Virus record (IMG/VR): IMGVR_UViG_3300027970_000001
Location: 1 to 64,000 of that record
DNA from: a virus
Strand: one strand, 5' to 3'
Length of the DNA stretch: 64,000 bases
The position numbers and the translations under genes are program-made. Numbering within the stretch: position 1 is the first letter of the stretch; every line of letters begins with the position of its first letter. This document shows positions 36,370 to 55,295 of the stretch, in pieces. Under the pieces are notes generated by a model. The model was not told where the DNA came from and searched no databases. It was given only the letters and a program-made list of their open reading frames with translations.

Positions 36370-37326
36370 ATGTCAGCCGCACCGCCCATCCATCCGAACA
36401 GCGCTCGCCTAGTCAGCCGCATGGGCATTCGTCCAGGCCGGACCACCGGAAGTCCTCGCATGCACGCGGGCATCGACGTTGGCTCGACGACTCCCGGCGC
36501 TCCGGTGATGTCGATGTCCAATGGCGTGGTCGAACGGGTTGGCAACAACGCGAGCGTCAACGACCCCCTACGTGGCTATGGCGATGCGGTCGTCATCAAG
36601 TCCGACGGCGAGGACCGCTGGGTTCTCTACGCGCACATGTCGAACCCGCGCGTTCGCACGGGCGAGCGCGTTCAGGCTGGGCAGGTCATCGGCAACGTGT
36701 CGAACACGACGAACGGCCAGTTCAGCCCACTGCCCGGAGAGTCCCTGGCGCAGTTCAGGGCGCGCAAGACTGCCGAGGGCGTTGCTCCGCGCGTGATGGT
36801 TCCTCACCTTCACATCGAGGTGCGCGGGCCCCGCCGCGACGGCACCTCGCCCTTCCTGCCGCTGCCGACGGCGTATCCGCAGACCGTGGCTCAGGCGGTG
36901 TACAACGTGAACCCGCAGGAGTGGATGGCCAGCAAGGGCATCACCTTCGGCGCCCGCGGTGCCACCGTGATTGCCCCCGGCTCTGCTGCCGCGCGTAACC
37001 AGGGCACCTGGAATCGTGGCGTTGCTGGCCTTGGCATGACCACCGCTCAGGCGAACGCTGCGATGGGCTGGACGCCTGCCAAGCTCAAGGCGTACTGGGA
37101 CGCGAAGGCCAACGCCTGCCAGTACATGGCGGACGAGGGAAACTGCTTGGCTCAGGTGGCGCAGCACGTCCCGGTGACGCTGGGCGGCATGGGCCAGTAC
37201 GAACCGGTTCGGTTCGAGCGCGACATCCGGTTCGGCCTGACTCCTCTTCAGTGGGGCCTTGTCGCCGCGACCGGCGTTGCGGCGCTCGGCTCTGTCGCCC
37301 TTCTCATTCGTCGCCGGAGGCGCTGA
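36370..37326 (+). CDS. M23 peptidase with C-terminal membrane anchor
   Basis: HAGID, YAHM, PHLHIE; C-terminal TM then RRRRR. Confidence 0.88.
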   Translation: MSAAPPIHPNSARLVSRMGIRPGRTTGSPRMHAGIDVGSTTPGAPVMSMSNGVVERVGNNASVNDPLRGYGDAVVIKSDGEDRWVLYAHMSNPRVRTGERVQAGQVIGNVSNTTNGQFSPLPGESLAQFRARKTAEGVAPRVMVPHLHIEVRGPRRDGTSPFLPLPTAYPQTVAQAVYNVNPQEWMASKGITFGARGATVIAPGSAAARNQGTWNRGVAGLGMTTAQANAAMGWTPAKLKAYWDAKANACQYMADEGNCLAQVAQHVPVTLGGMGQYEPVRFERDIRFGLTPLQWGLVAATGVAALGSVALLIRRRRR

Positions 37327-38957
37327 TGTACGCGGTCATTCCGAATCCTCCGAACGACCGGCTGAAGTACATCGCCAAGACGTACGAGAGGCAGCCTTGG
37401 ATCGTGATGGACATGATCGACATCATGTCCAACACGGTGGGCGAAGGGTACTGGTTCGACTTCTTCCGCGGCGGAGACGTGATCTCGGCGCCGCTGAAGA
37501 AGGCGCTCAGCATGCTGACCTGGTCTGACGACCAGAGCGTCGGCAAGCAATCCGTCGAGGGCAGGGCCACGATCTCGGATGTTCGCAAGAACGAGATCAT
37601 GCAGGCGGCCAGGAACACCGAGCTTGCCAAAGAGCTTGTCGAACGAATGTCCGAGTGGGACGATTTCAAGGCGCCAAGCGTCGCCGACAAGGCCTATTCG
37701 TGGATGGCCACGCAGCTCGCCAAGCTGTTCAAGGCTGGCGACTTGGATGCCTACACGGACGCGGTGCAGCAGTTCAAGGCGCGTGGCTCGGCCATCGGCG
37801 CGTGGGTGCAGGAGACCGGGCCCAGCCTGACCCAGATGACCTACGGCCAGGTCATAGACGCTGTCGATGAGTTCCAGCCTTCCACCGATACGCCTCCGAC
37901 TCAGTACGAGGCTGTCTACACGTTCCCCGACAAGTGGACCGTACAGAAGCTCCCTGGCGACTACTGCGAAGAAGAGGCGGATGCGATGCAGCACTGCGGC
38001 ACCGCAGAGCGCCGCGGTTCTGTCCTCTACTCGATCCGAGACCCGAAGGGCTTCCCCCACGTCACAGTCGAGTACCACCCGAAGACCAAGGACGTTGTCC
38101 AGGTCAGGGGCAAGCAGAATCAGCCTGCGATTGCGAAGTACCAGAAGTACGCGGACGAGTTCTTGGCGACGCTGCCGAGGCTGCCGAAGCACGTCGAAGC
38201 GCTTATGAAGGTGATCAGAGAAAGCCCGTACGACGACGGCCAAGAGTACGATGTTGAACTCGCCCTGGAGTGGGCAAACGCTGGCTTCAACGCGTCTGAG
38301 CTTTCCGACTGGCTGGACGCGGGTCTTGAAGTGGGACGATCTGACGTGGCAGAGGTTCTTGCGTCGGAAGACGTCTCCCCGGCAGAGTTTACGACCTTCC
38401 CCTACCCGGTGCTTGAGCTGATCCAATACGACAGCGGCGGGTTCGACACGGACCTGATCGGCATTGCCCGCCTGTATGTCGCGATGGCAGGACGCATGCC
38501 GGTTCGTCGTCAAACTGAGTTTGAGTTTGCTGTCCAAAAGAAGCAGCCCCTCCCGCCTGGGAGGTTCAAAGGCACAGAGGGGCTTGCTCAGATGCTCAAG
38601 GATGACCGCCAGCGTCTTCTTGAGGCGCAGGACTGGGTCGACGCTGGGAGGCGCGCGAAGATCTACGCGGAGCCTGGCGCGATGGCTGGCTGGTGGTCTC
38701 GCGGGTTCACTCTGCGTGAGCTTGAACGGTGGAGCGAGGAAGGCATCACCGACAGCCGGGTCGCCGAGGCTCTCGTCAGTTTCGGGATCGGCGCTCATGA
38801 CCTGGAAGATCTGAACGTGGGCGTCAGATCGATGGGCGGTCCGAAGGCAGACGACGTCCAGGGCATCGTTGCCGCCGTGGAGAAGAAGAGGCTCAGCGCC
38901 AACCGCTCCAGGCGCCGAACGTCAGTCCGCGTTGCTAGGAAGACCTCTCGGCGGTAG
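37326..38957 (+). CDS. PcfJ-like domain protein with Arg-rich tail
   Basis: WTVQKL..EADAMQHC..LYSIRD..PHVTVEY..VQVRGKQN; ends LSANRSRRRTSVRVARKTSRR. Confidence 0.7.
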   Translation: MYAVIPNPPNDRLKYIAKTYERQPWIVMDMIDIMSNTVGEGYWFDFFRGGDVISAPLKKALSMLTWSDDQSVGKQSVEGRATISDVRKNEIMQAARNTELAKELVERMSEWDDFKAPSVADKAYSWMATQLAKLFKAGDLDAYTDAVQQFKARGSAIGAWVQETGPSLTQMTYGQVIDAVDEFQPSTDTPPTQYEAVYTFPDKWTVQKLPGDYCEEEADAMQHCGTAERRGSVLYSIRDPKGFPHVTVEYHPKTKDVVQVRGKQNQPAIAKYQKYADEFLATLPRLPKHVEALMKVIRESPYDDGQEYDVELALEWANAGFNASELSDWLDAGLEVGRSDVAEVLASEDVSPAEFTTFPYPVLELIQYDSGGFDTDLIGIARLYVAMAGRMPVRRQTEFEFAVQKKQPLPPGRFKGTEGLAQMLKDDRQRLLEAQDWVDAGRRAKIYAEPGAMAGWWSRGFTLRELERWSEEGITDSRVAEALVSFGIGAHDLEDLNVGVRSMGGPKADDVQGIVAAVEKKRLSANRSRRRTSVRVARKTSRR

Positions 38958-38967
38958 GGTGGTAACG

Positions 38968-39360
38968 ATGGATCGCAAGAAGCTCTGGGCAGAAGACTTC
39001 GAGGGCAATCGCCTTAGCGGCGAGGACATGGAAGCCGACCTGACCTTCGAGGACATGGACAATGTCAACACGAAGGCAGTCAAGAGCGGCATGATCTTGC
39101 GGACCAACTGCCCGCAGTGCGGCAAGCAGGTCAAGGAGCTGGTGAACTGGGCAGAGATTGCCTGCTGGTTCCTCGGCAAGCCCGTCGCCGGGTGTGCTGC
39201 CCGTCGCGATGGCATGCACGTCGTGCTCGCGTGCCGGTGCGGCAAGCCCTCCGAGATGTTCTTCACCTGGACGGAGATCCGGGGATTTGTCGACCAGGGC
39301 GTCGGCGGCGGGTCCCTCAAGCCTCAGATTTATCAGGCGGCGGGCCTCACGGCCGTCTGA
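38968..39360 (+). CDS. Zinc-finger hypothetical protein
   Basis: CPQC...CRC. Confidence 0.65.
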   Translation: MDRKKLWAEDFEGNRLSGEDMEADLTFEDMDNVNTKAVKSGMILRTNCPQCGKQVKELVNWAEIACWFLGKPVAGCAARRDGMHVVLACRCGKPSEMFFTWTEIRGFVDQGVGGGSLKPQIYQAAGLTAV

Positions 39361-39803
39361 GTCTTCTTGGGCTCGGATTGCCTCGGCTGGGGAGGAAACT
39401 CCCCTCCGAGGCTTTCCAGTCTCTTCTGAGCCGCCTGCCTGAAGCCATCCAGCGCAGCCCTGCATTGGATGATGTGGGCACGCGCGCCCGCGTCCATGCC
39501 GGCCTTGATGCACTCGCAGTCGATCTGGTCGAGCCTGAGCATGAAGCAGAGGAAGAAGGACACGTCGCCGCGCTTGATGGCGACCAGGACCTCCTCCTCG
39601 TCCCTCTCGTAGAACGTCTTGGCGATGCCCTCGCACCAGATGGGCAGCTTCGTCAGGTACCTCTCGTGGAGGTAGACCTTCTCGCGAATCCCACGCCATA
39701 CGCGGCCAAGCGCTCCCTTGGTGGAAGACCCGAGCGTCTTTTTCAAGAGCGCCCTGTCCGCCGCCGACAGCGCGGTCCTAGGGTGGTCCTTGCTGAAGGG
39801 CAT
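39333..39803 (-). CDS. Hypothetical protein
   Basis: 156 aa, directly downstream of the phosphatase gene. Confidence 0.65.
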   Translation of the reverse strand: MPFSKDHPRTALSAADRALLKKTLGSSTKGALGRVWRGIREKVYLHERYLTKLPIWCEGIAKTFYERDEEEVLVAIKRGDVSFFLCFMLRLDQIDCECIKAGMDAGARAHIIQCRAALDGFRQAAQKRLESLGGEFPPQPRQSEPKKTQTAVRPAA

Positions 39804-39804
39804 C

Positions 39805-40278
39805 TTACCTGCGCGCGTTCCGAACGTGCTGCTCGAACATCGGATTGCAGAGCGGCATCATGCCCTCTTCGGGCGCGCGACGGTTGCGGCGGATAAGCTC
39901 AATCGCCTGTCCTCCCGTCATGTTGTACAGGCTCATCAGCGTGAACGCGCTGACAAGGCCCGACCGGTTGACGCCCATCGCGCAGGTGCTCGCGACCGTT
40001 CGTCCCGACCGAATCTGACTGGCCAGCTCTGCGCCGACCGACCGGATGGCCTCCGCGAACTCCTTCGGCAGGGGACGGTACGGGTCATCGTCGAGAGGGA
40101 TTCGGATCACGGCCTTGCCAGGCGGAGGCTTGAGCCTCGGCTGCTTTTCCTCGGCGCACAGCACCAGGGTGTCGATGACCGAAAAAGCCTCGATGGGAGG
40201 GTTTGGAAACCCACCCTGAATGAGCTTCCCCGGCACGACCCAGTCGTAGTTCCAGTCAAGTTGCTTCTTGTATGACAT
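39805..40278 (-). CDS. Dual-specificity/tyrosine protein phosphatase
   Basis: CX5R loop CAMGVNRS; IPLDD acid loop. Confidence 0.85.
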   Translation of the reverse strand: MSYKKQLDWNYDWVVPGKLIQGGFPNPPIEAFSVIDTLVLCAEEKQPRLKPPPGKAVIRIPLDDDPYRPLPKEFAEAIRSVGAELASQIRSGRTVASTCAMGVNRSGLVSAFTLMSLYNMTGGQAIELIRRNRRAPEEGMMPLCNPMFEQHVRNARR

Positions 40279-40366
40279 CGTCGGCGCCACCATAGCACGG
40301 ACGCAGGAAGCGCTTGCGTACATTCGACAGACTCTGCTAGGTTCGGCGCCTCATCCAAGGAGGGGT

Positions 40367-40681
40367 ATGACGATCGTGGACGAACGCGGACACGAGTGGA
40401 GCGGAGGTGTATGCGATCGATGCGGAGGCCGGTCAGACTGGCCCCTTGCCAGGCAGGCTTGCCCGGTACGCCCGACCAAGCGCACATCCGCAAAGCTCTC
40501 TGACGAAGAGGCCCGCGAGCGAGCCAGGCTTCAGCAGCGAGAGCGCAGAGCCCGCATGAACTCCGAATCCCTCCGCGAGATGAACCGTCGGCACAAGCGC
40601 GCCCAGCGGGAGCGGGAGCGTCAGAACCGGATCGATGACGTCGTCTCAGTCCATGGGATCGAGGTTCGGGAGGTCGGCTGA
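40367..40681 (+). CDS. Small Cys/Arg-rich protein
   Basis: SD AAGGAGG; H..CDRC..C then charged helix. Confidence 0.6.
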   Translation: MTIVDERGHEWSGGVCDRCGGRSDWPLARQACPVRPTKRTSAKLSDEEARERARLQQRERRARMNSESLREMNRRHKRAQRERERQNRIDDVVSVHGIEVREVG

Positions 40682-40683
40682 AC

Positions 40684-41289
40684 GTGAAACTGGTGTGGCT
40701 GGACATCGAAACAAGCGGCTTGGACGAGCGCAACGGCCTCATCCTTGAGGTTGCCGTCGCGCTGACCGACGACGCGTCTCTCAGCATCGAGCACGAGCGG
40801 AACTGGGTCGTTCATTGGGACGACATCACCCTCGACTACAAGCTCGGCGGATGGGCTCGGCATCAGCATGGGCAAAGCGGCTTGCTCGATGCGGTGAGGC
40901 TGTCGACGACGGGCATGTGGCCGGTTCGTCAAGAACTCGCAGCCTTCATCGCCCAGCATGTGAAGGAAGGGGACGGTGTCCTGGCGGGCAACAGCGTCGG
41001 TACGTTCGACCGCGTATGGCTCAGGTACCACGCCCCAGAGGTGGTGGAGCGCCTCCACTACCGCGTGTTCGATGTATCCTCACTTCGGATGCAGATGCAG
41101 CTTTGGGCTCCCACGTCACGCGCCGGAGACCTCGCCGCCGAGCGCAGCGAAAGCGGCCATACGCGGCCTCATCGCGCCATGGACGACTTGAGGGAGACGA
41201 TCGAAGAGGCTCGCGTCTACCGCGAGTTCATACGCCAAGCCGCGCTCGCGCCTTCGGTTTTGACGCAAACCACGCGACGCCAACAATGA
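40684..41289 (+). CDS. orn: Oligoribonuclease
   Basis: LVWLDIETSGLD, LAGNSV..FDR..L, LHYRVFDVSS, HRAMDD. Confidence 0.9.
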   Translation: MKLVWLDIETSGLDERNGLILEVAVALTDDASLSIEHERNWVVHWDDITLDYKLGGWARHQHGQSGLLDAVRLSTTGMWPVRQELAAFIAQHVKEGDGVLAGNSVGTFDRVWLRYHAPEVVERLHYRVFDVSSLRMQMQLWAPTSRAGDLAAERSESGHTRPHRAMDDLRETIEEARVYREFIRQAALAPSVLTQTTRRQQ

Positions 41290-41857: not shown

Positions 41858-41859
41858 GC

Positions 41860-42087: not shown

Positions 42088-43005
42088 TCACCGTCCTCGC
42101 TTGCTCGTGCGCCGACGCGAGGACTTTCTCCTGCTGGTGCGGCGGTTGGGCGTGATCTTCCAGGTCTTCTCCAGGCTCGCAACCTCGGACCCTTGGCTCA
42201 GCTTCATGCCCATGCTGCGGGGCAGGTCCGTGTAGGCCGACTGAGGGGACTCCTCATCGGCCTTGTACGAATAGTCCACCATCTCAACTCGGACGCCCTC
42301 TTCGGCTGCCTTCTCCAGGAGGAATCCGACAGCGTCCTCGAAGAGCCTGGCCTGCCACGGTTCAACCTTGTCCATCAGGTCGAGCATCTCCTGAGGGTCG
42401 ACGCCGTGCGCTCGAAGCTGCTGCGACATGAACGGGTCGACGGCGTTCTTCCTGACGCCCGTCACGTCCGACTGGACCTCCTCGACGAGCCACACGCCGT
42501 CGCCCTTGTCGCACCATCGGATCCAACCGACGCAGTAAAGCGGGCTCTGCTCCGACGGGTGACCGGAGTTGTCTGAGGCGCGACTGATTGCGTCCAGCAA
42601 GCGCGCCTGGCGATCGTTCAGGTCAAGCTGGTTGTAACGGACGCACAGCTTCAGCACGCGATTGGGCTCGTCGCATAGCTTGCCCTTTGCTGTCAGGGCT
42701 CGGAGGCGCTCCTTCACCCACTCGACGTTCGGCGCGTGGGGGTAGAGCCGAGGGTACTTGCGAAGACCCTCAAGGGCAGAGTCGACGGTGTACTCGTCCT
42801 CGACGACGGTCCATTCGACGGGCGACTGGTACGCCTCGCGCAGCTTGTCGAGAACCTCGTCGCTGAAGTCCCTACCGCCGGTCTGCCCCTTGAGCACCTC
42901 GAAGGCTTCGGGATACATGCGCTTGAAGTCTCGTGCGCCACGGGGTGTCCCGGGCTTACGGAACTTCAACATCGCTGACGTTTTGCGACCTAGTGACCTT
43001 GCCAT
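42088..43005 (-). CDS. Protein with GHP..GWIR..EEVQSD domain and Arg-rich tail
   Basis: Motif recalled from phage large/internal proteins; ends ITPNRRTSRRKSSRRRTSKRGR. Confidence 0.65.
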   Translation of the reverse strand: MARSLGRKTSAMLKFRKPGTPRGARDFKRMYPEAFEVLKGQTGGRDFSDEVLDKLREAYQSPVEWTVVEDEYTVDSALEGLRKYPRLYPHAPNVEWVKERLRALTAKGKLCDEPNRVLKLCVRYNQLDLNDRQARLLDAISRASDNSGHPSEQSPLYCVGWIRWCDKGDGVWLVEEVQSDVTGVRKNAVDPFMSQQLRAHGVDPQEMLDLMDKVEPWQARLFEDAVGFLLEKAAEEGVRVEMVDYSYKADEESPQSAYTDLPRSMGMKLSQGSEVASLEKTWKITPNRRTSRRKSSRRRTSKRGR

Positions 43006-43469: not shown

Positions 43470-44963
43470 CTACTGGGCGAGCCGCTTGGGACGGACGGGC
43501 TTGCCGCCGCATCCAATGCACTGGATGTCGAGCTTACCGTACTCGATAGGATCTCCAAAGATCAGCTCGGCAATAACGTCGGCGCGACGCTCGACGCCAT
43601 CTGGAAGCTTTTGACCAAACAGCTTTTCCAGGTGCTTCTTGCCGTACCTGAAGTCAACCGCGTGCCCGAACTCGTGGCGCATCAGGCCGCGGATGTAGGC
43701 CACGGGCTGGCCTTCAATCTTCGCTGCGAACGCGATGACGATCGGATCACCGTCCATGCAGTACCCGAACTGCCGCTCGGACCCGGTCCCGTTGTCCGCT
43801 GCGGCCTTCTCGTCGTGATGCAGCTCGCAGGTGCCAAAGTCCCCGAACGCCTGCTCCACCACGTCAAAGCACTCGTCGAAGATCTTGGTCGACTTCGGTA
43901 GCGCCGTGCCCGGGTTGCTGGCCATCTCCACGCTGATGGGCAACGCCCCGCCGCTCTGGCTGCCGTGTCCAAAATCGAACATGACCGCGCGTCCGTCAAG
44001 CGCGACCCCCATGTTGCGAAGGTGAACATCGCGAACCACGAATCCCTTGTCGGAGAGCTTCCTCAGGCCAGCGAAAATGTCAGCCATGTACCGCTCCCCC
44101 ACCTTGCTGTGGCGACCTTCCTTGAGCCGGACCGTGTAAAGGTCGTCAAGCTCCTCGGCTGTCATGGGCTGGGAGCTGTGCTCGATGGCCGTGAAGTCCG
44201 CCTCCTCTCGGAAGTTTCTGCAAATTTGAGCGATGGTCTCCCGAATCAGCTTGTTGTTGAGCTTCTCAGACGGCGGCATGGACGGTTCCGGTATGCTCGG
44301 GTGCTTCTTGTCGAACGGGTCAACAAACTCGGTGACGATTGCGTAGAGCGACCGGATCGAGTCCCCGTGCATGCTGCCCGGGAACTCTTCCCTGACAACT
44401 GTGCCGGGCAGCTTCCAGACCTCAAACACTTCGACAAGACCAGGCGACCTTCCCATCCGGCGAACAGCCTCGGCTGCCAAGCCATCATCCCGGTCGTCGG
44501 TCACCTTGAGGACGCGCCCGTCATCCAGCCGGAACGCATGAGCGTAAGCCCCCGCCCCGATGGTTCGCTTCTCAAGCTCGTCTGCTGTCACGCGCTTGAG
44601 CCCGATGCGCCTGGTGAAGTTGGGCACCTCGCGCAGCCGGTCGACCACATCGTCGAGGAACGGGCGGTTGGGCGTGAGGCCGGCTGCCGCGTACATCTGC
44701 TGAGGTCCGAGCGACACGATCTTGGGGTTTGGAGCGAGCCCCGCCTTCGCGCGCTCCTCCATCTTCATGAGGCGCGCGTAGTAGTCGGGGAACTCGCGCA
44801 GATGGTCCAGGGCAATCCGGCCAGCCTGCATCAGGTCGGACGTGTGCTCCTGCTCGGTCTCAACGCCGAGGCGGAACTCGCCCAAGTCGAACCCCGCCCC
44901 GACCTGTCCGAGAGACGCAAGGATGCGCCTTGCCTGATCAAGTCCAACAGACTGCTTGCCCAT
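43470..44963 (-). CDS. Three-domain protein: DUF5661-like, protein kinase-like and HExxH domain
   Basis: GVETEQEH..ALDHLREFPDYY; IGAGAYA, VLKVT, DVHLRN, FDFG; HEFGH. Confidence 0.75.
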   Translation of the reverse strand: MGKQSVGLDQARRILASLGQVGAGFDLGEFRLGVETEQEHTSDLMQAGRIALDHLREFPDYYARLMKMEERAKAGLAPNPKIVSLGPQQMYAAAGLTPNRPFLDDVVDRLREVPNFTRRIGLKRVTADELEKRTIGAGAYAHAFRLDDGRVLKVTDDRDDGLAAEAVRRMGRSPGLVEVFEVWKLPGTVVREEFPGSMHGDSIRSLYAIVTEFVDPFDKKHPSIPEPSMPPSEKLNNKLIRETIAQICRNFREEADFTAIEHSSQPMTAEELDDLYTVRLKEGRHSKVGERYMADIFAGLRKLSDKGFVVRDVHLRNMGVALDGRAVMFDFGHGSQSGGALPISVEMASNPGTALPKSTKIFDECFDVVEQAFGDFGTCELHHDEKAAADNGTGSERQFGYCMDGDPIVIAFAAKIEGQPVAYIRGLMRHEFGHAVDFRYGKKHLEKLFGQKLPDGVERRADVIAELIFGDPIEYGKLDIQCIGCGGKPVRPKRLAQ

Positions 44964-46514: not shown

Positions 46515-47276
46515 ATGATGCCGTACGTTTCGACCATCACTCCCCTGGACCTACGTGGCATGGGGCTCGGCACCGAGGCGGCGCGCCCCACCGACGAGGA
46601 AATCGCCCGAGGTCGCCTGGACGCTCAGATTTCCCGCGAGTCCGGCGTGCCGGTGCCGTCGCTGCGAGCGATCCGATCCGTAGAGAGCGGCGGCAACCCG
46701 GCGGCGGTGCGATTCGAGACGCGGGTCTTCAGGAACCGAACCGGCCAGACCGTTGAAGGACACGACCGCGCGGCGTTCCAACGCGCGTATGCGATCAATC
46801 CCCTGGAAGCCGTCAACTCGACGTCTTGGGGATGGTTCCAGGTGATGGGGTTCCACGGCTTCCCCGAGATGTTCGGCGGCCCTGGGCAGGCCGTCCGCGC
46901 GTTCGACGCAAACCCCGAAGAGGTCGGGATGCGCCTGTTTAAGCGGTGGATGGACAGTCCACGCCACGCCGCAGCCAAGCTCGCCGCGCGTACGCTCAAC
47001 TTCGCTCAGTTCGCCAGGTTCTACAACGGATGCGGCGACTCGTGCGAACGATACGCGAGCCGCATGCAGCAGAACTACGACCGCGCGTTGCCTGAGTGGC
47101 GACGGGTGGAACCGTACGTCGGCGGCGGTGGCACGCCACAGGTGTGGCCGAAGTGGTCCTATTGGGCCATCGCTGGCGGCAGCGTCGCTGGGGCCTTGGG
47201 ACTCGTCGGCGGCGCGGCTTACCTGCTGCGCCCGAAGAAGAAGCGCCCCGTCTCGGCTAACAGGAGGCTGCGGTGA
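46515..47276 (+). CDS. N-acetylmuramidase (DUF3380 type) with C-terminal membrane anchor
   Basis: AIRSVESGG, RFE, STSWGWFQVMG, FARFYNG; TM then KKKRPVSANRRLR. Confidence 0.85.
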   Translation: MMPYVSTITPLDLRGMGLGTEAARPTDEEIARGRLDAQISRESGVPVPSLRAIRSVESGGNPAAVRFETRVFRNRTGQTVEGHDRAAFQRAYAINPLEAVNSTSWGWFQVMGFHGFPEMFGGPGQAVRAFDANPEEVGMRLFKRWMDSPRHAAAKLAARTLNFAQFARFYNGCGDSCERYASRMQQNYDRALPEWRRVEPYVGGGGTPQVWPKWSYWAIAGGSVAGALGLVGGAAYLLRPKKKRPVSANRRLR

Positions 47277-47626
47277 TTCCGAAGGACAAGCAGATCTACG
47301 TCCTTGTCTTCGCTCTCGTGATGGTGGCGTTCATCGCCTTCGTCGCCGGCAAGGGCTGCGCGCCGACGCCGGTCGACACCCTGCCGACGCAGGGGATAGA
47401 CGCTGGCCCCGGAGAGAGTCAGATAGCCCAAAACCTCGACGCGTCGATTCAGCAAGGCAACGAGCAGCTTGTCGCCATTGAGCACAAGTTTGACGACGAC
47501 ATGGCGGCTTTCAGCGACGCGCAGCGAGCCGAGTACGAACGGCTCCGGCAGGGCAATGTCGCCGCCACGGCCCGGTACCTCTTGGACTGGAACCGCCGCC
47601 GCCAGCAGATCGCAGACGATCTATGA
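47273..47626 (+). CDS. Membrane-anchored coiled-coil protein, spanin-like candidate
   Basis: N-terminal TM ending AGKGC; helical C-terminus. Confidence 0.55.
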   Translation: MIPKDKQIYVLVFALVMVAFIAFVAGKGCAPTPVDTLPTQGIDAGPGESQIAQNLDASIQQGNEQLVAIEHKFDDDMAAFSDAQRAEYERLRQGNVAATARYLLDWNRRRQQIADDL

Positions 47627-48119: not shown

Positions 48120-49316
48120 GTGCTTACGCCCAACGCCCTACGCAAGCGCATCGAATACGTCGCCAAGCAGTTCCCCTCGGTGCTGTACGAGACGGCTTAC
48201 GTCACAGCTCACACCGTCGGTGCAGACCGCGATGCCATTGAGAAGGACCGCAACAGCGGCGTCGACTTCACCGCTCGGTTTAGCGAAACCGCACATCAGA
48301 ACGAAGCGCTGGTACCTTGGGTCGCTAAAGAACTCAACGCAGCCATGCGCGAGGTGAGGAAGGGGAGGCTCGGCGAGCGAGAGTTCGTTGACTTGGTCAA
48401 CCTGCTTGAAGCCAAGCTGCCGAACATCGCCGCGTGGGCCGAAGCGACCAAGCCGGACCTCACCAAGCTCACCGCAGCCGAGGCGATCACCTCCGCTGCC
48501 AAGTTCGAGCCCGACGACGCCGCGCCCGTGCCGCAGGGGAAGGTCATCTACAGGTTCGCAGACGGCTGGACCGTTCAGGAGCTGACCACCAAAGGGCAGA
48601 TCTTCGCCGAGGGCATAGGCGTTCAGAACTGCTTGAGGGAAACCCAGTACGGCCCTGAATACTTGGAAAGGTCTGAGAACGGAGAGATTCGCATCTTCAG
48701 CCTGCGCACTCCCGCCGGTTCCCCGCGCGTCTCAATGGAGTTCGTTATCGATCCATGCAGAGATGGCGGCGGGCGCTTCCATCAGATCTTTGCAAAGCAG
48801 AACACCAGCCTCAACGCTACTTTGGAGCAGGTGCTAAAGGCAGGATACGACGAAGCCCTCTGGCGCAGTATCCAGCGGTACAAGCCCCGCATCGCGGAGT
48901 TCATCACAGAGAAGTTCGCGTCAGACCCGGATGGGTTGATCATGGCAGGGGCCCCGTTGCCCGCTGGCCTGACAAGCGTGGGAGGGGGCCTCTTTCTGCG
49001 CGGCTACAACCACCCCCTGCCTGCTGGCCTGACAAGCGTGGGAGGGAGCCTCGACCTGACGGACTACAACCACCCCCTGCCTGCTGGCCTGACAAGCGTG
49101 GGAGGGAGCCTCGACCTGCGCGGCTACAACGACCTGCGCGGCTACAACCACCCCCTGCCTGCTGGCCTGACAAGCGTGGGAGGGGGCCTCTTTCTGCGCG
49201 GCTACAGCTACCCTCTGCCTGCTGGCCTGACAAGCGTGGGAGGGAGCCTCGACCTGCGCGACTACAGCTACCCCCTGCCTGCTGGCCTTAAGGCCTCTGG
49301 CCGCGTCGTATCATAG
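48120..49316 (+). CDS. PcfJ-like domain protein with C-terminal 20-aa LRR-like repeats
   Basis: GWTVQEL..AEG..VQNC..IFSLR..PRVSME..QIFAKQN; repeats LPAGLTSVGGxLxLxxYxxP. Confidence 0.75.
   Translation: MLTPNALRKRIEYVAKQFPSVLYETAYVTAHTVGADRDAIEKDRNSGVDFTARFSETAHQNEALVPWVAKELNAAMREVRKGRLGEREFVDLVNLLEAKLPNIAAWAEATKPDLTKLTAAEAITSAAKFEPDDAAPVPQGKVIYRFADGWTVQELTTKGQIFAEGIGVQNCLRETQYGPEYLERSENGEIRIFSLRTPAGSPRVSMEFVIDPCRDGGGRFHQIFAKQNTSLNATLEQVLKAGYDEALWRSIQRYKPRIAEFITEKFASDPDGLIMAGAPLPAGLTSVGGGLFLRGYNHPLPAGLTSVGGSLDLTDYNHPLPAGLTSVGGSLDLRGYNDLRGYNHPLPAGLTSVGGGLFLRGYSYPLPAGLTSVGGSLDLRDYSYPLPAGLKASGRVVS
48957..49289 (+). repeat. About 5.3 tandem 60-bp coding repeats with an 18-bp internal duplication
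   Basis: Unit CTGCCTGCTGGCCTGACAAGCGTGGGAGGG...; GACCTGCGCGGCTACAAC doubled at 49113-49148. Confidence 0.92.
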
Positions 49317-49361: not shown

Positions 49362-50417
49362 TCAGTCCCGCTCTGCCTCATCCGTCGCGATGAGGCTCGC
49401 CAGGTTCCGCACGTCGGCCAGCTTGCCCTCAAGAGAAGGCGCGGGGCCCATCAGCTTGCCGAGGTAGATGGCCGTTGTGTTCGGGTTGGCGTGGCCGAGG
49501 AACGCCTGGATGTCCTGAAGGCGGGCACCGGCCTTGTTCAGGTCGCGCGCTGCCATGTGCCGAAGCCCGTGGACCTTCAACGGCTTCCACTCAACCCCTG
49601 CCGCTTTTGCGCGCCTCTTCAAGATGACCTGAGCCATCCTCGGTGAGAGCGGACAGTCGGGCGTCTCACCCATCATCCTTGCGTTTGGGTCGATGCGGGT
49701 GAACACCCCCTGCTCGGGCCTGAGCGTCGAAAGCCTGCCGCTCGCGACCCAGTACGCCTTGAGCGCCGAGTAGCAGATGTCAGGCAGCTCGAACGTCTGA
49801 AGCTTGTTTCCCTTGGTCTTCACCGTGTATGAGCGAGGCTTTGCACCCAGGGCCAGGTCTCTGACGCGCATGCCCGCTACCTCCATCTTTCGTCGCCCCG
49901 TAAAGGCGTAGAAGAGGAGAAGCGCGCGGTCCCGCATGCCCCTCGGGTCCATCGGGATCGAATCAAGAATCGTCTTAAAGGTCTGCCACTCAACCGGAAC
50001 TGACCTGGCGTACGGAGTCGGGCGCACGTCGCTCCGCGATACCGGCCTGAAGGGGTTGCTCTTCACAAGCCCCTCGCCCGTGGCGTCGGACGGCTGCATC
50101 AGAAAATCGAACAGCGCCGTCATCACATCGAGCCTGTGGGCGACCGTGGCGTCGCTCTTGCCGAACTCGATCAACCGGCTTTTGAAGGCCGCGGCGTGCA
50201 TGGTCGTGACCTGGTCCGGGGAGAGCCCGCGTGGCCACATGCCGAAAAACTGCCTCACGGCGTTTCGGTAGGTGCGCCTTGTGTTTTCACCCTTTGAAGA
50301 CAGCCACCCGGCAATCGCCATGGCGTACTTCATTCCCTTTTCATGGTCGCCCGCCCCCAGCCTGTAGGCGACCTCGGTCTGGGCTTCGTCACGATCAACG
50401 ATCAATGATGCAGTCAT
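49362..50417 (-). CDS. XerC/D-like tyrosine recombinase
   Basis: RDRALL..TGRR, HGLRH, LGHANPNTTAIY; catalytic residues appear intact. Confidence 0.92.
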   Translation of the reverse strand: MTASLIVDRDEAQTEVAYRLGAGDHEKGMKYAMAIAGWLSSKGENTRRTYRNAVRQFFGMWPRGLSPDQVTTMHAAAFKSRLIEFGKSDATVAHRLDVMTALFDFLMQPSDATGEGLVKSNPFRPVSRSDVRPTPYARSVPVEWQTFKTILDSIPMDPRGMRDRALLLFYAFTGRRKMEVAGMRVRDLALGAKPRSYTVKTKGNKLQTFELPDICYSALKAYWVASGRLSTLRPEQGVFTRIDPNARMMGETPDCPLSPRMAQVILKRRAKAAGVEWKPLKVHGLRHMAARDLNKAGARLQDIQAFLGHANPNTTAIYLGKLMGPAPSLEGKLADVRNLASLIATDEAERD

Positions 50418-50437
50418 CGTGTCCCGTCAGTAGATGG

Positions 50438-50465
50438 ATGTATGTAGCTCGGATGCTACATATTG
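50438..50465. promoter_or_regulatory. dif-like palindrome: candidate recombination site or operator
   Basis: TATGTAGC-TCGGAT-GCTACATA (50441-50462), 24 bp upstream of the recombinase ATG. Confidence 0.55.
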
Positions 50466-50484
50466 CTGCCGAAGGTAGGTGGTC

Positions 50485-50697
50485 ATGAAGATTGCAGAGC
50501 TACTGTCGTCGGCCAGGAAGGGCGTCCGGGTCAAGGTTCGAGTCCCCTCCTCCAAGAAGGGCGAGCTAGGAGAACTCGCGAAGGGCACTTTTCAGAGGCT
50601 GACGAGGAGCCAAGACAGCAAGCGGATCGTCCGCGTCATCGTGACCGTTGGAGGTCAGGAGTATGAGTTCAGGCCGCAGGATATCTCCCTAGCCTGA
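50485..50697 (+). CDS. Small basic beta-rich protein
   Basis: 70 aa, divergent from the recombinase. Confidence 0.6.
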   Translation: MKIAELLSSARKGVRVKVRVPSSKKGELGELAKGTFQRLTRSQDSKRIVRVIVTVGGQEYEFRPQDISLA

Positions 50698-50725
50698 CAC
50701 GCCCGGCTTCGTCATACTCGCTGAC

Positions 50726-51103
50726 ATGACGCCGCTCGATGCGCTACGACGCTTGGGTGCCCCTGTGTGCGAGGGCTGCAACACCATCACCAAGTCGCCG
50801 CTTGGGGATGTCTACGACCAGGCGTTTGGGTGGAGGCATCGTCGATGCGCCGCATGCCGCACGTCCGTGATGGCCGGCAACGAGCGGCTGGCGTCCGCGC
50901 AGCAGCGTGCTCACGAGGAGAAGCTGAGGGCAATCCGAGATGAGATCCGCCAGAGCGAGCACCGATGGATGATCGAAGACAGCAACAGGGCCAACAGCTA
51001 CTCATACCTCAAGGCCGTCGCCGAGCACCAAGAAGACATCGACGCCGCCATGGGCGAGTGGGGTATGGGGCACGGCATGGCGGGCGCTCGCCGTGGATGG
51101 TAG
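50726..51103 (+). CDS. Zinc-finger hypothetical protein
   Basis: CEGC...CAAC. Confidence 0.6.
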   Translation: MTPLDALRRLGAPVCEGCNTITKSPLGDVYDQAFGWRHRRCAACRTSVMAGNERLASAQQRAHEEKLRAIRDEIRQSEHRWMIEDSNRANSYSYLKAVAEHQEDIDAAMGEWGMGHGMAGARRGW

Positions 51104-51112
51104 GGTGTCGCG

Positions 51113-51577
51113 ATGGACCCCTCCGACGAGAAGGACTTGTACTTCTACTTTGGCCAGTTTTGGCCCGTCGCCGCCGTCGGCGTGATCATCTATCTTGGCG
51201 GCGAGGCCGCCAAGAAGGTGGTTCACATCTGGGTGCCGCAGGGCACCGAGACCAGCAAACAGCCCTTCTGGTACAAGCTATGGTACGCCACGATTGACTG
51301 GCATCCGATTCTCGTCGGCGGCCTGCTCGGCGCCATCCCATGGCCCGTGCCCACCTTCGTGATGCACTGGTGGGTTCGGGTGCTGTGGTTTGCGTTCGTG
51401 GGGGCGTGCTCGGGGCAGATCTACCGCTCGATCAAGAAGAGCTTCGACATGCTCCCCGAGCTTGCGCGCAAGAAGGCGGGGCTCCCAGAGCAAGCCCCGT
51501 CTGTGCGGCCGGAGAGCGACGAAGCGACTGCTGTCAGCGACGCGAACGGCGGCGATTCTTCCGCACCCCGAGCTTGA
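51113..51577 (+). CDS. Three-TM membrane protein, holin-like
   Basis: Hydrophobic segments ending VGACSGQIYRSIKK; charged tail. Confidence 0.55.
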   Translation: MDPSDEKDLYFYFGQFWPVAAVGVIIYLGGEAAKKVVHIWVPQGTETSKQPFWYKLWYATIDWHPILVGGLLGAIPWPVPTFVMHWWVRVLWFAFVGACSGQIYRSIKKSFDMLPELARKKAGLPEQAPSVRPESDEATAVSDANGGDSSAPRA

Positions 51578-51800
51578 GCACCTCCGGTGCCTTCTTGTTC
51601 CACCACCAGAACTGAACACCAAGTAGGCCCACGAGCCCGAAGGTCGCGTACTTCCAGTTCGCGCTGACGGACTCTGACGCCGCATCCCCGAATCCTGCGA
51701 TCGGAATCGACGGCACCGACGCCCCCTGGCCGCAGCCGCAGCCCGACCCGCTCAGCGGGAACCTGTTCGACCTCATCCCTCGCAACGCAATGTACGCCAT
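51534..51800 (-). CDS. Small tail-anchored membrane protein
   Basis: IAGFG motif, TM, ends VRKNRRRSRR; TAGAAT 9 nt before ATG. Confidence 0.7.
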   Translation of the reverse strand: MAYIALRGMRSNRFPLSGSGCGCGQGASVPSIPIAGFGDAASESVSANWKYATFGLVGLLGVQFWWWNKKAPEVLKLGVRKNRRRSRR

Positions 51801-51905
51801 GGTGCAGGCATTCTACGCGTCCGTAGGGGTTGCGCCAAGCCGATTTCGTTCGTAGGGTGCGTCGCATGAACGCGGTGGCTTTCACCGCAACCTGTAGGGG
51901 GTTTC

Positions 51906-52565
51906 ATGGCGATTGCAGATTTGTCGATGGATGTCTCAGACCAGACCCGCGCTCCGGCGTCGTCAGGCGACGAGGGTGGCCCCGCCGCCGTGTCGGGCTT
52001 CGCGGAGTCGTTGCCCCCCGAGGAGCCAGTCGCGCAGGCGCGTGCCGCGGCCTCGTGGGGAGAGGAGCTTCGGGCGCTGAGGCCCGTTCAAGCTTTGGGC
52101 AGGGGAGAGTCGTGGCAGGAGACGTTCCCGGAGTTCGTGCTCAAGGTCGTGGCGGCGGCCAGGCGGCACGGGGTCACAGCGGTCAGCAAGGAGACCGGGT
52201 TCTCGCTGTCCACCGTTCACCGATGGGCCGTGACCTCTGGCCTTCCGATTGGCGGACAAAAGCGCCGGGCGAAGGTCAATCGCAGCAGAAAGACCAGCGA
52301 TAACAAGGTCGTGGACATCAGGCGCAAGCCCGTCAAGGCTCGTGTCGTCAAGGTTCGCCCTGTGGCGGTCGCCGAAGCTCCGCACAAGGAAAAGGACGTC
52401 ACTTTGATGGCGTCCATGATTGATTTCATCGGCAGCTCTGCTGACGACAGGGAGATCTCCGCCATGGTGATCATCTCAGGCGTTCTCAAGAGCCTCACGC
52501 CGGATCAGCGCCGATCGGTCGCAACCTGGTTTGGGATGAAGCTGTCCCGCCTGCTTTCCGAGTGA
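51906..52565 (+). CDS. HTH DNA-binding protein
   Basis: GVTAVSKETGFSLSTVHRW HTH followed by a basic linker. Confidence 0.7.
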   Translation: MAIADLSMDVSDQTRAPASSGDEGGPAAVSGFAESLPPEEPVAQARAAASWGEELRALRPVQALGRGESWQETFPEFVLKVVAAARRHGVTAVSKETGFSLSTVHRWAVTSGLPIGGQKRRAKVNRSRKTSDNKVVDIRRKPVKARVVKVRPVAVAEAPHKEKDVTLMASMIDFIGSSADDREISAMVIISGVLKSLTPDQRRSVATWFGMKLSRLLSE

Positions 52566-52614
52566 GGTCAGACGGCGTGCGTCCCGCGCGTGCAGGAAGT
52601 AGCCTGCACGCGCG

Positions 52615-53184
52615 ATGAACGAAGACACCGAGGCGGTTGCCGAGCACGAGGAAAATCCCGGTGATGACTCGGGCGATGCCCCCATTCCCGTGACCCGCCT
52701 GGAGCCCAGGACGTTCGACCTGTCACGCTTCGAGACGCCCACGGAACGGACGCGCACCATGAGCACCTTCGACGACCGCCCGCAGCACGCCATGGCCCCG
52801 GAAACGCCGGCTCAGTACACGCCGCAGCCCGGAGAGCGCGCTTTCAGGGTCATGCTCGCGTCGGAAGGGGAACCCGGGCAGGTCGTTCTGCGGCACTCAA
52901 GCTGGCTTCCTGCACGCGTGTTTGGACGAGCGGTGGCGGTTCGATACGCCATGTTCGAGGCCAAGCGGTCGCTTGCCGGTCCGCTCCAGGTGCTCATGGA
53001 CGCGTCCGGTCGCGTCATCGGCGTCTACCTTCCGGGCAGCGGCAAGCTCGCTCCTCCTCCTGTTGTGAAGGCCGTGAAGCAGGCTGCCGCTGGTCCCGTC
53101 AAGCGCACCAAGCGGACAAGCCGGTCCGTCACGTCCGAGCGTCCGGCCAAGCGCACGAGCAAGGTGCCCGCCCGTCGTCGATGA
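52615..53184 (+). CDS. Protein with acidic N-terminus and basic KRTS-repeat tail
   Basis: Ends KRTKRTSRSVTSERPAKRTSKVPARRR. Confidence 0.65.
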   Translation: MNEDTEAVAEHEENPGDDSGDAPIPVTRLEPRTFDLSRFETPTERTRTMSTFDDRPQHAMAPETPAQYTPQPGERAFRVMLASEGEPGQVVLRHSSWLPARVFGRAVAVRYAMFEAKRSLAGPLQVLMDASGRVIGVYLPGSGKLAPPPVVKAVKQAAAGPVKRTKRTSRSVTSERPAKRTSKVPARRR

Positions 53185-53228
53185 TCGACTGGCGGAACTA
53201 TCACAACGCGTGGTAGGCTCCGCCAGCT

Positions 53229-53894
53229 ATGCCGATGAAGCACGCGCCTGCATACACGCCTCAGCTATATCTCCCCGGCAGCATGGGGAGGTATCGTACG
53301 TACCCCCGCATGGTGACGACGCCGATTCCGGGGGCTGGGTTCAGCAACGTCGGAAAGCTGGTTTGGGGAGAGCAGGTGCTCGACCTTTCCGGTCGCCATG
53401 GCTTTTACCCTGGCAACTACGAGCGGGTCCCGCTGCGTGGACTGGGCACCGTCGCGTCGCCGTTTGGCGCATCGGTGAGGGTAGTTCCCCCGATCACGGC
53501 CACTCGTGTCGAATGCCGTCGCGTTCCGGCTCCAGAAGGGTGCTACTCGTGCCCGGACGGCTTTGAGCTTAGGCAGTTGACCCCCGGGATGCCCCCGGCG
53601 TGCGTGCGTCCTGGCCAGATGATCGGAGAGGGAGGGTATGCCCCTCCGCCGTCAGATCCTGCCGCAGCGCAGCCGAAGTTCTTCGATGTCGGCAAGGCCA
53701 TCTTCGCCAGCACCCCGGTGCAGAACATCGCTGCGATGGGCCCGATGGGGCAGGAGGCTCTCGTCTCCTACGCCAAGATCACGGCTTTCGGCACCTTTAT
53801 CATCGCCCCGCTGATGGGCGTGGCCGGCTACCTCATCGGCAAGAACAGCAAGAAGATGCAGGCGAATCGCCGCCGCCGCCGGAGCCGTCGATGA
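53229..53894 (+). CDS. Tail-anchored membrane protein with small Cys domain
   Basis: LRGLG; C..C.SCP..C; TM; ends MQANRRRRRSRR. Confidence 0.72.
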   Translation: MPMKHAPAYTPQLYLPGSMGRYRTYPRMVTTPIPGAGFSNVGKLVWGEQVLDLSGRHGFYPGNYERVPLRGLGTVASPFGASVRVVPPITATRVECRRVPAPEGCYSCPDGFELRQLTPGMPPACVRPGQMIGEGGYAPPPSDPAAAQPKFFDVGKAIFASTPVQNIAAMGPMGQEALVSYAKITAFGTFIIAPLMGVAGYLIGKNSKKMQANRRRRRSRR

Positions 53895-54259
53895 GCTACA
53901 GCCCCGTCCCTTATCGCCACGCCTCGCTCGGCGCTGGCCCGTCGGCACAGGATACGGGTCAGACCGTCCTGAACGTGGCCAACGTGGTCGCTGGCCTTGT
54001 GCGAGACCCCGAGGGCACCCTCCGTGTCCAGGGCCCGGGGATCGTCAGCGCGGTCGACCGTCATCTTGTCGGTCCCGTCGTCGACTCGGTTGCCCGAGCG
54101 TCTGCTCCCTACGTTCTCCGCTATGTGCTGCCTGCCCTCGGCGTCCTGTATCTCCTATCAGGTGCCGCGGCGTACTTCTCTTTCGAGGTCCTCCGTCAGC
54201 AGGGGGAGCGAAAGATGAGTCCGAACCGGCGCCGCAGGCGGAGGCGCAGGGTGCGATGA
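53891..54259 (+). CDS. Tail-anchored membrane protein
   Basis: ATGA overlap; TM; ends MSPNRRRRRRRRVR. Confidence 0.72.
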   Translation: MSYSPVPYRHASLGAGPSAQDTGQTVLNVANVVAGLVRDPEGTLRVQGPGIVSAVDRHLVGPVVDSVARASAPYVLRYVLPALGVLYLLSGAAAYFSFEVLRQQGERKMSPNRRRRRRRRVR

Positions 54260-54867
54260 GGAAGATCTACAAGACCGACATTTTCGGTGGCCGCATGGAT
54301 TCTCGGCAGTTCAACGCCGGGCGTTCCATGGAAAAGCGTATGTACCAGGAGGGCAAGGTCCTGGGCAACTCGATGGACGCCGAGAAGCAGGCGCCGAGGA
54401 CCTGGATCTTGTGGGCTGATGGCCCGGACCTTCCCGGCGGCCGAGGCAAGCCGATCATCGAGTGCGAGCTGTACGCGGTGCCTCGCGCGAGCGACAGCAA
54501 CGAGACGGTCGGCATGCTGATCGCCCAGTGCCCCGTCTGCTACATGCACCACAAGCAGGACAACTACATCACCGTGCGCGAGGACAACAAGGGCATGTCC
54601 ATCGGCACCGTCGAGTACGGGCGCTTGCCCAAGGGCCACCACCTTCGAGACAACTACGCGCTCGACTGTGAAGCAAAGGGCCGTCAGCCCCGGTCCACCG
54701 ATAAGATCCCGATGATTTCGTCGCCCGAGCGATGGCAGTGCGACTACTGCATGTCATGGTGCGTCCGCGTGACCGACAGCGTCGCGCACACCGACATGCG
54801 AGGCGCAACCCAGATCATCACGGGCGGCAACCGCATCGTTACCCCTGGCTCCTCCGTGGACATGTGA
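54256..54867 (+). CDS. Zinc-ribbon hypothetical protein
   Basis: CPVC and CDYC..WC. Confidence 0.65.
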   Translation: MRKIYKTDIFGGRMDSRQFNAGRSMEKRMYQEGKVLGNSMDAEKQAPRTWILWADGPDLPGGRGKPIIECELYAVPRASDSNETVGMLIAQCPVCYMHHKQDNYITVREDNKGMSIGTVEYGRLPKGHHLRDNYALDCEAKGRQPRSTDKIPMISSPERWQCDYCMSWCVRVTDSVAHTDMRGATQIITGGNRIVTPGSSVDM

Positions 54868-54869
54868 AC

Positions 54870-55295
54870 ATGGCATATCGAGTCGACCCTCTCGCTTTCG
54901 TGTCTGGCGCGGCCAGCCTTCCAAGGAACAGGGCCATCAGGCCAGACCTTCAGGACCAGTACGCACTGGTGCCCGTGAGCATGCTCGGCGACGAGATGCA
55001 GCCGATTCCTCAGCCCCTTCCGACCCAGCTCGTGCCCGCGAGCAGCGGCAGCATGGCGCTCGTGAAGAAGGTCGTGGCGGTGATCGTGGTCATCGCCATC
55101 TTGGCTGCCATCTACGAGATGTGGCGGCGGATGAGTGGCGCCAAGGACGCGCGCCCTGCCCTGACCGCCAACAAGGCAGCGCGCAAGCTCTCGACGGCTG
55201 CACTTGCAAAGCAGCTTCTTGAGCGCCTTGAAAAGAAGGGGAGCGGCAACCCGACCACTCTCCGCTCGCTCAAGACGTACGCTCGCAAGGCGTGA
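54870..55295 (+). CDS. Single-TM membrane protein with basic C-terminal domain
   Basis: TM VVAVIVVIAILAAIY; LTANKAARK motif. Confidence 0.7.
   Translation: MAYRVDPLAFVSGAASLPRNRAIRPDLQDQYALVPVSMLGDEMQPIPQPLPTQLVPASSGSMALVKKVVAVIVVIAILAAIYEMWRRMSGAKDARPALTANKAARKLSTAALAKQLLERLEKKGSGNPTTLRSLKTYARKA

Follow-up and report, generated by a model that had tools for sequence, protein, structure and literature searches.

The adenovirus protease adenain cuts at (M/I/L)-x-G-G/x and (M/I/L)-x-G-x/G (a slash here marks the bond in question), and its substrates include very basic, DNA-bound core proteins, which are processed inside the DNA-filled particle. Type IV secretion substrates, protamines and the hepatitis B core protein have disordered polybasic tails that direct them to nucleic acid or to a DNA-handling machine. 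In phage T4, where the protease gp21 reads L/I-x-E, and in the giant phages phiKZ and SPN3US, proteins carry terminal peptides that end in the protease motif; the proteins so tagged are loaded into the head and later ejected (PMC10052503; PMC5694885). Polyvalent proteins, which occur in phages and conjugative elements, are predicted by Iyer et al. (2017) to accompany the DNA on delivery and to be processed by their own zincin domains before or after packaging; a search of that text found neither an Asn junction motif nor basic tags (PMC5512222). Here we analyze 64,000 nucleotides of DNA from an uncultivated large bacterial virus (hereafter the window: positions 1 to 64,000 of IMG/VR virus record IMGVR_UViG_3300027970_000001), in which unrelated proteins end in a hydrophobic residue, two variable residues and Asn (Phi-x-x-N), followed by a polybasic tail, and in which the same core stands at the borders of protein modules. 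Full-text searches of a paper library gave no account of an Asn-specific phage maturation site or of these tags.

The initial annotation had listed six non-homologous proteins sharing this ending, and all six were recovered (Table 1). Their third-position GC of 0.75-0.83 argues that the tagged frames are real genes. We defined a tag as Phi-x-x-N followed, up to the end of the protein, by a tail of which at least half is Arg or Lys; by this definition 6 of the 76 proteins in the curated window set are tagged, and their tails consist of 50-100% Arg/Lys. Shuffling the last 15, 25 or 40 residues yields a mean of 0.23, 0.08 or 0.04 tags, with a maximum of 3 in 2000 shuffles, which rules out chance or composition as the source of the tags. 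A repeat at the DNA level is likewise ruled out: as had been claimed, the DNA of the tails differs between copies, codon choice being unlike from tail to tail. Four of the six proteins (46515, 51534, 53229 and 53891) have a hydrophobic helix, read from the sequence, just upstream of the tag, and the Arg run of these membrane proteins partly follows the ordinary positive-inside rule; the tagged proteins 37326 and 42088 have no hydrophobic helix before the basic run. A seventh, weaker tag is possible, and the orthologue of its carrier in a relative (L012) ends in SEWN/RRRRDAGR. The 88-amino-acid (aa) membrane protein additionally carries MRSN/R at residues 9-12.

Table 1. Tags, copies of the Phi-x-x-N core and associated modules, by window position (a slash follows the Asn of the motif)
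Feature	Position	Gene	Strand	Carrier or remark
M23 peptidase (PF01551)	36370..37326		+	leader MSAAPPIHPN/S; helix and RRRRR tail without Asn
VIPN	37335-37346, within leader 37326..37346 (MYAVIPN/PP)		+	N-terminus of PcfJ-like protein
LSAN/RSRRRTSVRVARKTSRR	tag 38892..38957	37326-38957	+	PcfJ-like protein, soluble
ITPN/RRTSRRKSSRRRTSKRGR	tag 42088..42156	42088-43005	-	soluble 305-aa protein
Three-module polyvalent protein	43470..44963		-	DUF5661 (Pfam), LAPN/, PKIV spacer, LTPN/, kinase-like, MASN/, zincin
Junctions of the 43470-44963 protein	LAPN 44727-44738; LTPN 44667-44678; MASN 43914-43925		-	
Zincin (minimal gluzincin) module	43473..43913		-	directly behind MASN junction; candidate processing protease
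VSAN/RRLR	tag 47250..47276	46515-47276	+	muramidase (PF11860, Pfam), after hydrophobic helix
LDWN/RRRQQIADDL	47582..47626	47273-47626	+	seventh tag, weaker, possible
LTPN	48123-48134, within leader 48120..48134 (M-LTPN/A)	48120-49316	+	second PcfJ-like protein
VRKN/RRRSRR	tag 51534..51566	51534-51800	-	88-aa membrane protein
MQAN/RRRRRSRR	tag 53856..53894	53229-53894	+	221-aa membrane protein
MSPN/RRRRRRRRVR	tag 54215..54259	53891-54259	+	122-aa membrane protein
LTAN/K	55161..55172	54870-55295	+	141-aa protein, after hydrophobic helix

A comparison with homologues, which the initial annotation had proposed as a check, shows that the Asn is kept in distant relatives and that the tail is variable. 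Seven homologues of the PcfJ-like protein, from different contigs and down to 28% identity, all keep N526, R527 and R530 (the distant ones at 28-33% identity), giving a C-terminal Phi-x-x-N-R-x-x-R; the 40 residues before this motif, and the tail after it, vary in sequence and length. The same homologues start with Phi-x-x-N-P-P, N7 and P9 being invariant, and PcfJ-like paralogues elsewhere in the virus start with MLTQN/PP. The family of the 305-aa protein (the 42088 family) shows W-K-x-x-P-N at its end in all 34 homologues (37-98% identity), with 2-25 residues following the Asn and [KR]RTSR units in the tails. Among strain variants, P2 (A or S) and the number of Arg change and the Asn is constant: the tag of 53229, for example, also occurs as MQSN with four Arg rather than five. 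The Asn tag of the muramidase is kept in P0017 and P0025, and a different one (VKRN, MKRN) is found in P0013 and P0015; Asn tags are thus carried by two separate sub-lineages.

Several observations concern the tails and leaders themselves. Tails are built from [KR][KR]TS[KR][KR] units (window 38904-38957, 42088-42144 and 53100-53184; loci L014 and L015). These units resemble basophilic kinase sites and, because a kinase-like module (43914-44666) and a dual-specificity phosphatase (39805-40323) are encoded nearby, the charge of the tag might be regulated. The orthologue of the M23 peptidase in the relative L016 ends in RRRPMTAN/RGPRKNRLRRWGEK; in the window, the TGA stop codon of the M23 gene overlaps the ATG of the PcfJ-like gene (37320-37330). 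Membrane proteins also share a start M-[SAP]-Y, followed 8-20 residues in by a G-[LM]-G-type word, as in MSYAMNGLGQ, MMPYVSTITPLDLRGMGLG and MSYSPVPYRHASLGAG. This start, carried by 46515, 51800 (minus strand), 53891 and 54870, by P0013 and P0015, and by L011:10714 and L017:512, is a second shared leader and matches no known signal peptide class.

The core motif is also found where modules meet. The three-module polyvalent protein of the window has an orthologue in a syntenic relative (L011) with the order M-TPN/, kinase-like, MAMN/, DUF5661, LAPN/, an extra domain, MAPN/ and zincin; BLASTP aligns the two proteins in three segments, and each break falls at an Asn. We extended the comparison by an exhaustive search of 1.8 billion representative proteins, which gave 1833 relatives, and counted motifs in an 11-residue window at each border. 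The 150 representative homologues of the fusion display varied architectures of up to 7917 aa. Phi-x-x-N occurs at the start of the zincin in 82 of 89 representatives, at the start of the kinase in 35 of 40, at its end in 27 of 28 and at the end of DUF5661 in 21 of 40, compared with 9% at random positions of the same proteins. Across 135 junction sites the sequence logo shows L (55%), M (23%), V (13%) and I (8%) at P4, A (38%) and T (19%) at P3, P (39%), A (13%), R (12%) and S (10%) at P2, N at P1, and P (33%), R (21%), G (19%) and A (10%) at P1'. All six window tags fit this logo, with Arg at P1'; stand-alone forms of the modules start with M-x-x-N. Such fusions and neighboring genes of effector domains are a hallmark of polyvalent proteins, and we find them both in the window (DUF5661, kinase-like and zincin) and in loci L001 and L014, which carry the ADP-ribosyltransferase (ART) domain ART-PolyVal (PF18760).

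Further tags lie outside the window. The same virus, at 98-99% nucleotide identity, is present in many metagenome assemblies, including a 133-kb ENA scaffold that we followed for about another 57 kb; precomputed Pfam matches were used for about 60 kb of such additional loci. Three C-terminal tags are encoded 9-19 kb past the window end: IFKKN/RRRHRRHS, LRLN/KHGRRRRR and KITPN/RKRTSRSPRRSSRRR. A run of genes about 30-37 kb past the end, three of them with ART-PolyVal domains, displays the mirror image: its proteins start with VKRRTSRAPKPVTSN/P, MKRTSRRPRRN/P, MRRTSRLPHQN/P and MRRSSRPRRN/P. Five consecutive genes of this run end in QRN/RRTSRR..., LKN/RRTSRRTSKRTSRRRR, TRN/RRSSKRTSKRTSRRRR, SKN/RRTSRRTSRRRR and VKN/ARRRTSRARRTSRRRR. 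A larger protein of the run contains this ART module between MERN/G and ILRN/P, so that Asn borders the module whether its neighbor is a tag or another domain. A 1137-aa protein starts with MATKRTSRRPVSRN/A, a hexapeptide-repeat protein ends in IIPN/RRRP, and one protein of relative L012 is tagged at both ends. With tags at either terminus in mirror arrangement, the Asn always lies between tag and body.

Copies of the core without a basic tail had been reported as well (LTAN, VIPN, LTPN, LAPN and MASN), and all are present; the fusion protein holds a third junction copy, LTPN, in addition to the two listed earlier. The tail behind LTAN in the 141-aa protein is not Arg-rich, and this copy has no statistical support from the window. 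The second PcfJ-like protein, which starts with LTPN, ends (48900-49316) in about six tandem units of about 20 residues (PLPAGLTSVGGSLDLR.YN.), with no basic tag.

The initial annotation had advised a search of the rest of the contig for a protease. In the window, a gluzincin candidate is present, and no gp21-like serine protease was detected. Our scans covered about 60 window proteins with Pfam and 20 with PHROGs, and gave no match to a prohead protease of the gp21/S77 or HK97/S78 type; the only other proteases so found were the M23 peptidase and a DUF2201_N protein with a VWA-like domain beside a MoxR-like ATPase. The module behind the MASN junction has HExxH and a downstream Glu that are invariant in 25 sequences (H96, E97, H100 and E124), the Glu standing 24 residues after the second His. 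Its AlphaFold2 (AF2) model has a predicted local distance difference test (pLDDT) score of 89, the junction residues scoring 49-58. The best fold match of the model is proabylysin (Z 8.3, root-mean-square deviation 2.8 over 93 residues), followed by projannalysin (Z 7.4), and selecase (Z 7.1); SPRTN and the catalytic domains of M48 and M1 come next, and zincins make up almost the whole of the 50 best matches. Foldseek and sequence profiles gave weak zincin matches (best PDB profile E = 0.05), and Pfam gave no MPTase-PolyVal match for the module. It combines the metal site and the fold of a gluzincin, for which catalysis is predicted, and, lying almost always directly behind such a site, it is the best candidate for an enzyme that would cut at the Asn sites.

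The spacer that follows many Asn sites leads to another candidate. It starts with P-K-[ILFVM]-V, and 33 of the 44 occurrences of PK[ILFVM]V in all fetched proteins are preceded by Asn. A 264-aa beta-rich protein of this virus (L018:285-1079; third-position GC 0.90) has the N-terminus M-P-K-I-V-G. Relatives at 64-99% identity occur in 54 metagenome loci, on contigs of up to 298 kb, and all of 27 sequences compared share the same first ten residues. A cut after Asn would expose Pro-Lys-Ile-Val, the same end as that of the 264-aa protein once its Met is removed. Fold searches returned a weak list in which picornavirus-like, PBCV-1 and SPV1 capsid proteins are mixed with unrelated beta sandwiches. 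The 264-aa protein is a candidate for the major capsid protein of the lineage. In L018 it adjoins two further beta-rich proteins of 316 and 228 aa (1296-2246 and 2262-2948), and two of the three have a third-position GC of 0.90. Near the gene for the 264-aa protein, relatives encode small proteins ending in TTKN/RRRTSRR or VSKN/RRSSRRRRTSRR, which places the tag across a lineage of 57-70% GC, with contigs of 130-298 kb.

How might these elements work together? The initial annotation had proposed an Asn-directed protease and a removable tag. Of this proposal, the conservation of the Asn, the motif at about 135 border junctions, the reordering of modules at the Asn in a relative and the basic tags on either terminus are observed; cleavage, packaging and binding of the tail to DNA or membrane are interpretation. 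The reading we favor, with a confidence somewhat short of an even chance, is that Phi-x-x-N is a processing site spanning P4-P1, with an attached removable handle that binds nucleic acid or the particle core. The motif (P4 L/M/V/I, P3 A/T/S, P2 P/A/R/S, P1 N, P1' P/R/G/A) serves this virus lineage as the standard mark for the end of a module, and it would be a proteolytic site recognized on its non-prime side. The motif closes PcfJ-like, ADP-ribosyltransferase, kinase-like, DUF5661 and hexapeptide-repeat modules and those of the 42088 family; behind it comes another module, a brief spacer or a polybasic stretch. A non-prime-side protease site with a removable handle would produce exactly this grammar, together with the mirror leaders. 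The Arg/Lys/Ser/Thr tail may be a fast-evolving, disordered handle, removable at either terminus, whose most likely target is the genome or some other polyanionic component of the core of the particle; its role is suggested by its composition and by the kind of proteins that carry it. On four membrane proteins, the Arg run would also be an ordinary positive-inside anchor. The carriers comprise ADP-ribosyltransferases, PcfJ-like proteins, pentapeptide- and hexapeptide-repeat proteins, an AcrVA2-like neighbor and wall hydrolases, kinds of protein that are expected to act at entry. Anti-defense and entry enzymes would thus travel with the DNA and then be freed by a cut at the Asn, for which the small gluzincin, nearly always directly behind such a site, would be the best enzyme candidate.

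A wider version of this proposal, which we regard as rather doubtful when taken as a whole, describes an undescribed and widespread lineage of large bacterial viruses. In these viruses, the Asn-specific code Phi-x-x-N/, the portable [KR][KR]TS[KR][KR] tags and a PKIV peptide that repeats the start of the putative major capsid protein would bring anti-defense and entry modules, shuffled and numbering in the dozens, into the particle, and a new family of minimal gluzincins, each behind its own site, would supply the maturation protease.

A number of points weigh against processing at the Asn. We infer the cutting of the Asn bond rather than seeing it directly, and we know of no Asn-specific phage protease. 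Zincins usually select on P1', and P1' is variable here. The enrichment that the initial annotation had called for holds for the complete tag (six against at most 0.23 expected) and fails for the bare core at termini: within the window proteins, the per-residue rate of Phi-x-x-N is 0.0079 over the first 15 positions and 0.0083 over the last 30, compared with 0.0084 in interiors. Because the core is equally frequent in interiors, the case for the N-terminal and junction copies comes only from homologues. Basic tags are rare among the 150 representatives of the fusion family, one being C-terminal and two N-terminal, so tail and junction motif are separable. Two orthologues of the 305-aa protein (P0191 and P0192) have ITPN with only two residues after it, and the motif is therefore kept even where there is no tail to remove. 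The motif is absent from the junction of pentapeptide repeats with a 42088-like domain, and most muramidase homologues have a helix and a plain RRR tail with no Asn. As for the capsid candidate, AF2 modeled the 264-aa protein poorly (pLDDT 52.6), and its best fold match reaches only Z 5.0.

Several of these points would be explained if nothing were cut, an alternative to which we give a smaller but serious share of probability. Phi-x-x-N would then be a structural or docking element, that is, a conserved domain end, a hinge or a partner site, and the tail a permanent extension binding DNA, RNA or lipid, comparable to protamines or to the Arg-rich C-terminal domain of the hepatitis B core protein, whose binding may be tuned by phosphorylation of its RTS units. 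Retention of the motif before a two-residue tail, the junction type that lacks it and the likeness of the tail units to basophilic kinase sites, with a kinase-like module and a dual-specificity phosphatase in the window, all agree with such an element, and the protease is so far only a candidate. However, the motif closes at least eight unrelated folds, unlike a structural cap, and it also stands at extreme N-termini (MRRN/P, MLTPN/A), where it caps nothing; the Asn lies between tag and body at either terminus, and the junction is predicted to be disordered. The least probable of the readings we considered goes further and leaves the tails as positive-inside topology signals only, with the Asn a functionless bias of the lineage. 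The basic run does directly follow the last hydrophobic helix in four of the six tagged window proteins, and muramidase homologues from many sources have a helix and an RRR tail, but this reading would not account for the two soluble proteins of the window, for proteins of the ART, PcfJ and hexapeptide kinds, for tags at N-termini or for the internal junctions, and the Asn is invariant while its surroundings vary.

Asparagine peptide lyases are known in the capsid proteins of nodaviruses, tetraviruses and reoviruses, and cleavage could in principle proceed here in the same way, the Asn side chain attacking its own peptide bond through a succinimide with no dedicated protease. The Asn is the sole invariant residue, P1' is Pro in 33% of the junctions and Asn-Pro bonds are the most prone to this reaction. 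Known lyases, however, need a folded catalytic environment, whereas the sites considered here lie in predicted disordered linkers; moreover, the conserved hydrophobic P4 and the Pro at P2 look like enzyme recognition, and the C-terminal tags have Arg rather than Pro at P1'. We consider autocatalysis very unlikely. It is also unlikely, though we place it a little higher, that the tail is a translocation signal of the type IV secretion kind, addressing its carrier to a DNA-translocating ATPase, so that the proteins would be exported with DNA from an element that may be conjugative. VirB/D4 substrates have Arg-rich C-terminal signals, and neither Pfam nor PHROGs detected a terminase, portal or capsid family among the window proteins scanned. 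PcfJ-like, DUF932, ParB-like and zincin-bearing polyvalent proteins are moreover typical of conjugative elements (PMC5512222). Yet Pfam finds no coupling-protein or mating-pore family, either in the window proteins scanned or across roughly 60 kb of additional loci, and tags occur also on membrane-anchored proteins and at N-termini. The window encodes fibre-like paralogues and wall hydrolases, the lineage has the extremely conserved 264-aa beta-rich protein (third-position GC 0.90), and the nearest feature-space neighbors of a 357-aa protein are tailed-phage proteins.

The genomic setting can be summarized as follows. GC content in the window is 62-65%, except in the first 5 kb, where it reaches 69-79%. 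An ORF in this segment (1-5000), at 1417-2619, matches DUF932 weakly and reaches 0.95 in third-position GC; the segment may represent flanking host DNA, inserted foreign DNA or the end of a chimeric contig. A replication block comprises a helicase with a Hint insert, an archaeo-eukaryotic primase and RNase T-like exonucleases. The helicase (13007-15538; superfamily 2, ResIII and Helicase_C) probably contains an intein, given that a Hint or homing-endonuclease-associated insert occupies residues 102-155. An enzyme-rich region encodes Amidase_2, the M23 peptidase, the muramidase and the dual-specificity phosphatase, along with a GDSL hydrolase, a gamma-glutamyl cyclotransferase, a tyrosine integrase and glycosyltransferases. 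The MoxR-like AAA ATPase, followed by the DUF2201_N putative metallopeptidase with its VWA-like domain (7061-9446), is possibly a second protease system of the element. The fibre-like paralogues are consecutive (23326-24534 and 24540-26924), with similar N-termini and the identical C-terminal word DEVAHNI, which in L016 (5-1057) is replaced by SEIAHNII. Since the scaffold of another strain breaks off within this block, it is probably a variable receptor-binding region. At 59161-60932, strains otherwise 98-99% identical (L006-L008) have another cassette, in which a 413-aa methyltransferase/glycosyltransferase gene takes the place of the window genes; this difference suggests that modification genes are swapped between strains.

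There were almost no PHROGs matches among the 20 window proteins scanned. Comparison by tblastn of the 1136-aa, 357-aa, PcfJ-like and zincin proteins with isolated phages gave no match, nor did that of the zincin protein with plasmids; for two tagged proteins, no close relatives were found in IMG/VR. A genome scan with a single protein matched two contigs of metagenome-assembled genomes, labeled Clostridia and Phycisphaeraceae, which are probably viral. The syntenic relative that reorders the modules of the fusion comes from a 166-kb contig with no nucleotide similarity to the window.

If the code is real, the set of proteins delivered to the host could be read from sequence alone across a whole uncultivated lineage, which is of interest in itself, the 264-aa protein being found in more than 50 metagenome loci at 64-99% identity. 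The known phage maturation proteases would be joined by one with an Asn-directed specificity, and the free swapping of effector modules would be explained, each module having its own release site. Foreign proteins might also be loaded into particles by means of this small, portable pair of tags, a use to which the T4 targeting sequence has been put.

We finally compare this code with the systems described at the outset. T4 and the giant phages also have short terminal peptides with a fixed motif end on many unrelated proteins, and their leaders sometimes measure only a few residues. Here, however, P1 is Asn rather than Glu, the candidate enzyme is a zincin, many tags are polybasic, and tags stand at the C-terminus, at the N-terminus and between domains, in contrast to an N-terminal leader ending in L/I-x-E or S/A/G-x-E. 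The parallel with gp21 drawn in the initial annotation holds as to function only, since motif, position and likely enzyme class all differ. Polyvalent proteins share the cast (ART-PolyVal, GNAT, truncated kinases, zincin peptidases and PcfJ-like neighbors), but in this virus many of the modules are separate tagged genes and the zincin is of another family. The minigluzincins proabylysin, projannalysin and selecase resemble the zincin module in fold and in their HExxH and Glu metal site; they have no detectable sequence relationship to it, and the module here is fused behind other modules. Type IV signals, protamines and the hepatitis B core protein have polybasic tails, with phosphorylatable RTS- or SPRRR-like units, yet neither a conserved Asn before the tail nor an N-terminal mirror form; the positively charged C-terminal tail that marks type IV substrates is found here as a resemblance only. 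Adenovirus sites, for their part, have a hydrophobic P4 and a small, fixed P1. In our tags P1 is always Asn instead of Gly, leaving the hydrophobic P4 as the one shared feature of the adenain site; we detected no cysteine protease, and these viruses have bacterial hosts. Although it has the defining motif of neither, the code would, by analogy, work like the propeptides of T4 and the giant phages and like the processing of adenovirus core proteins.

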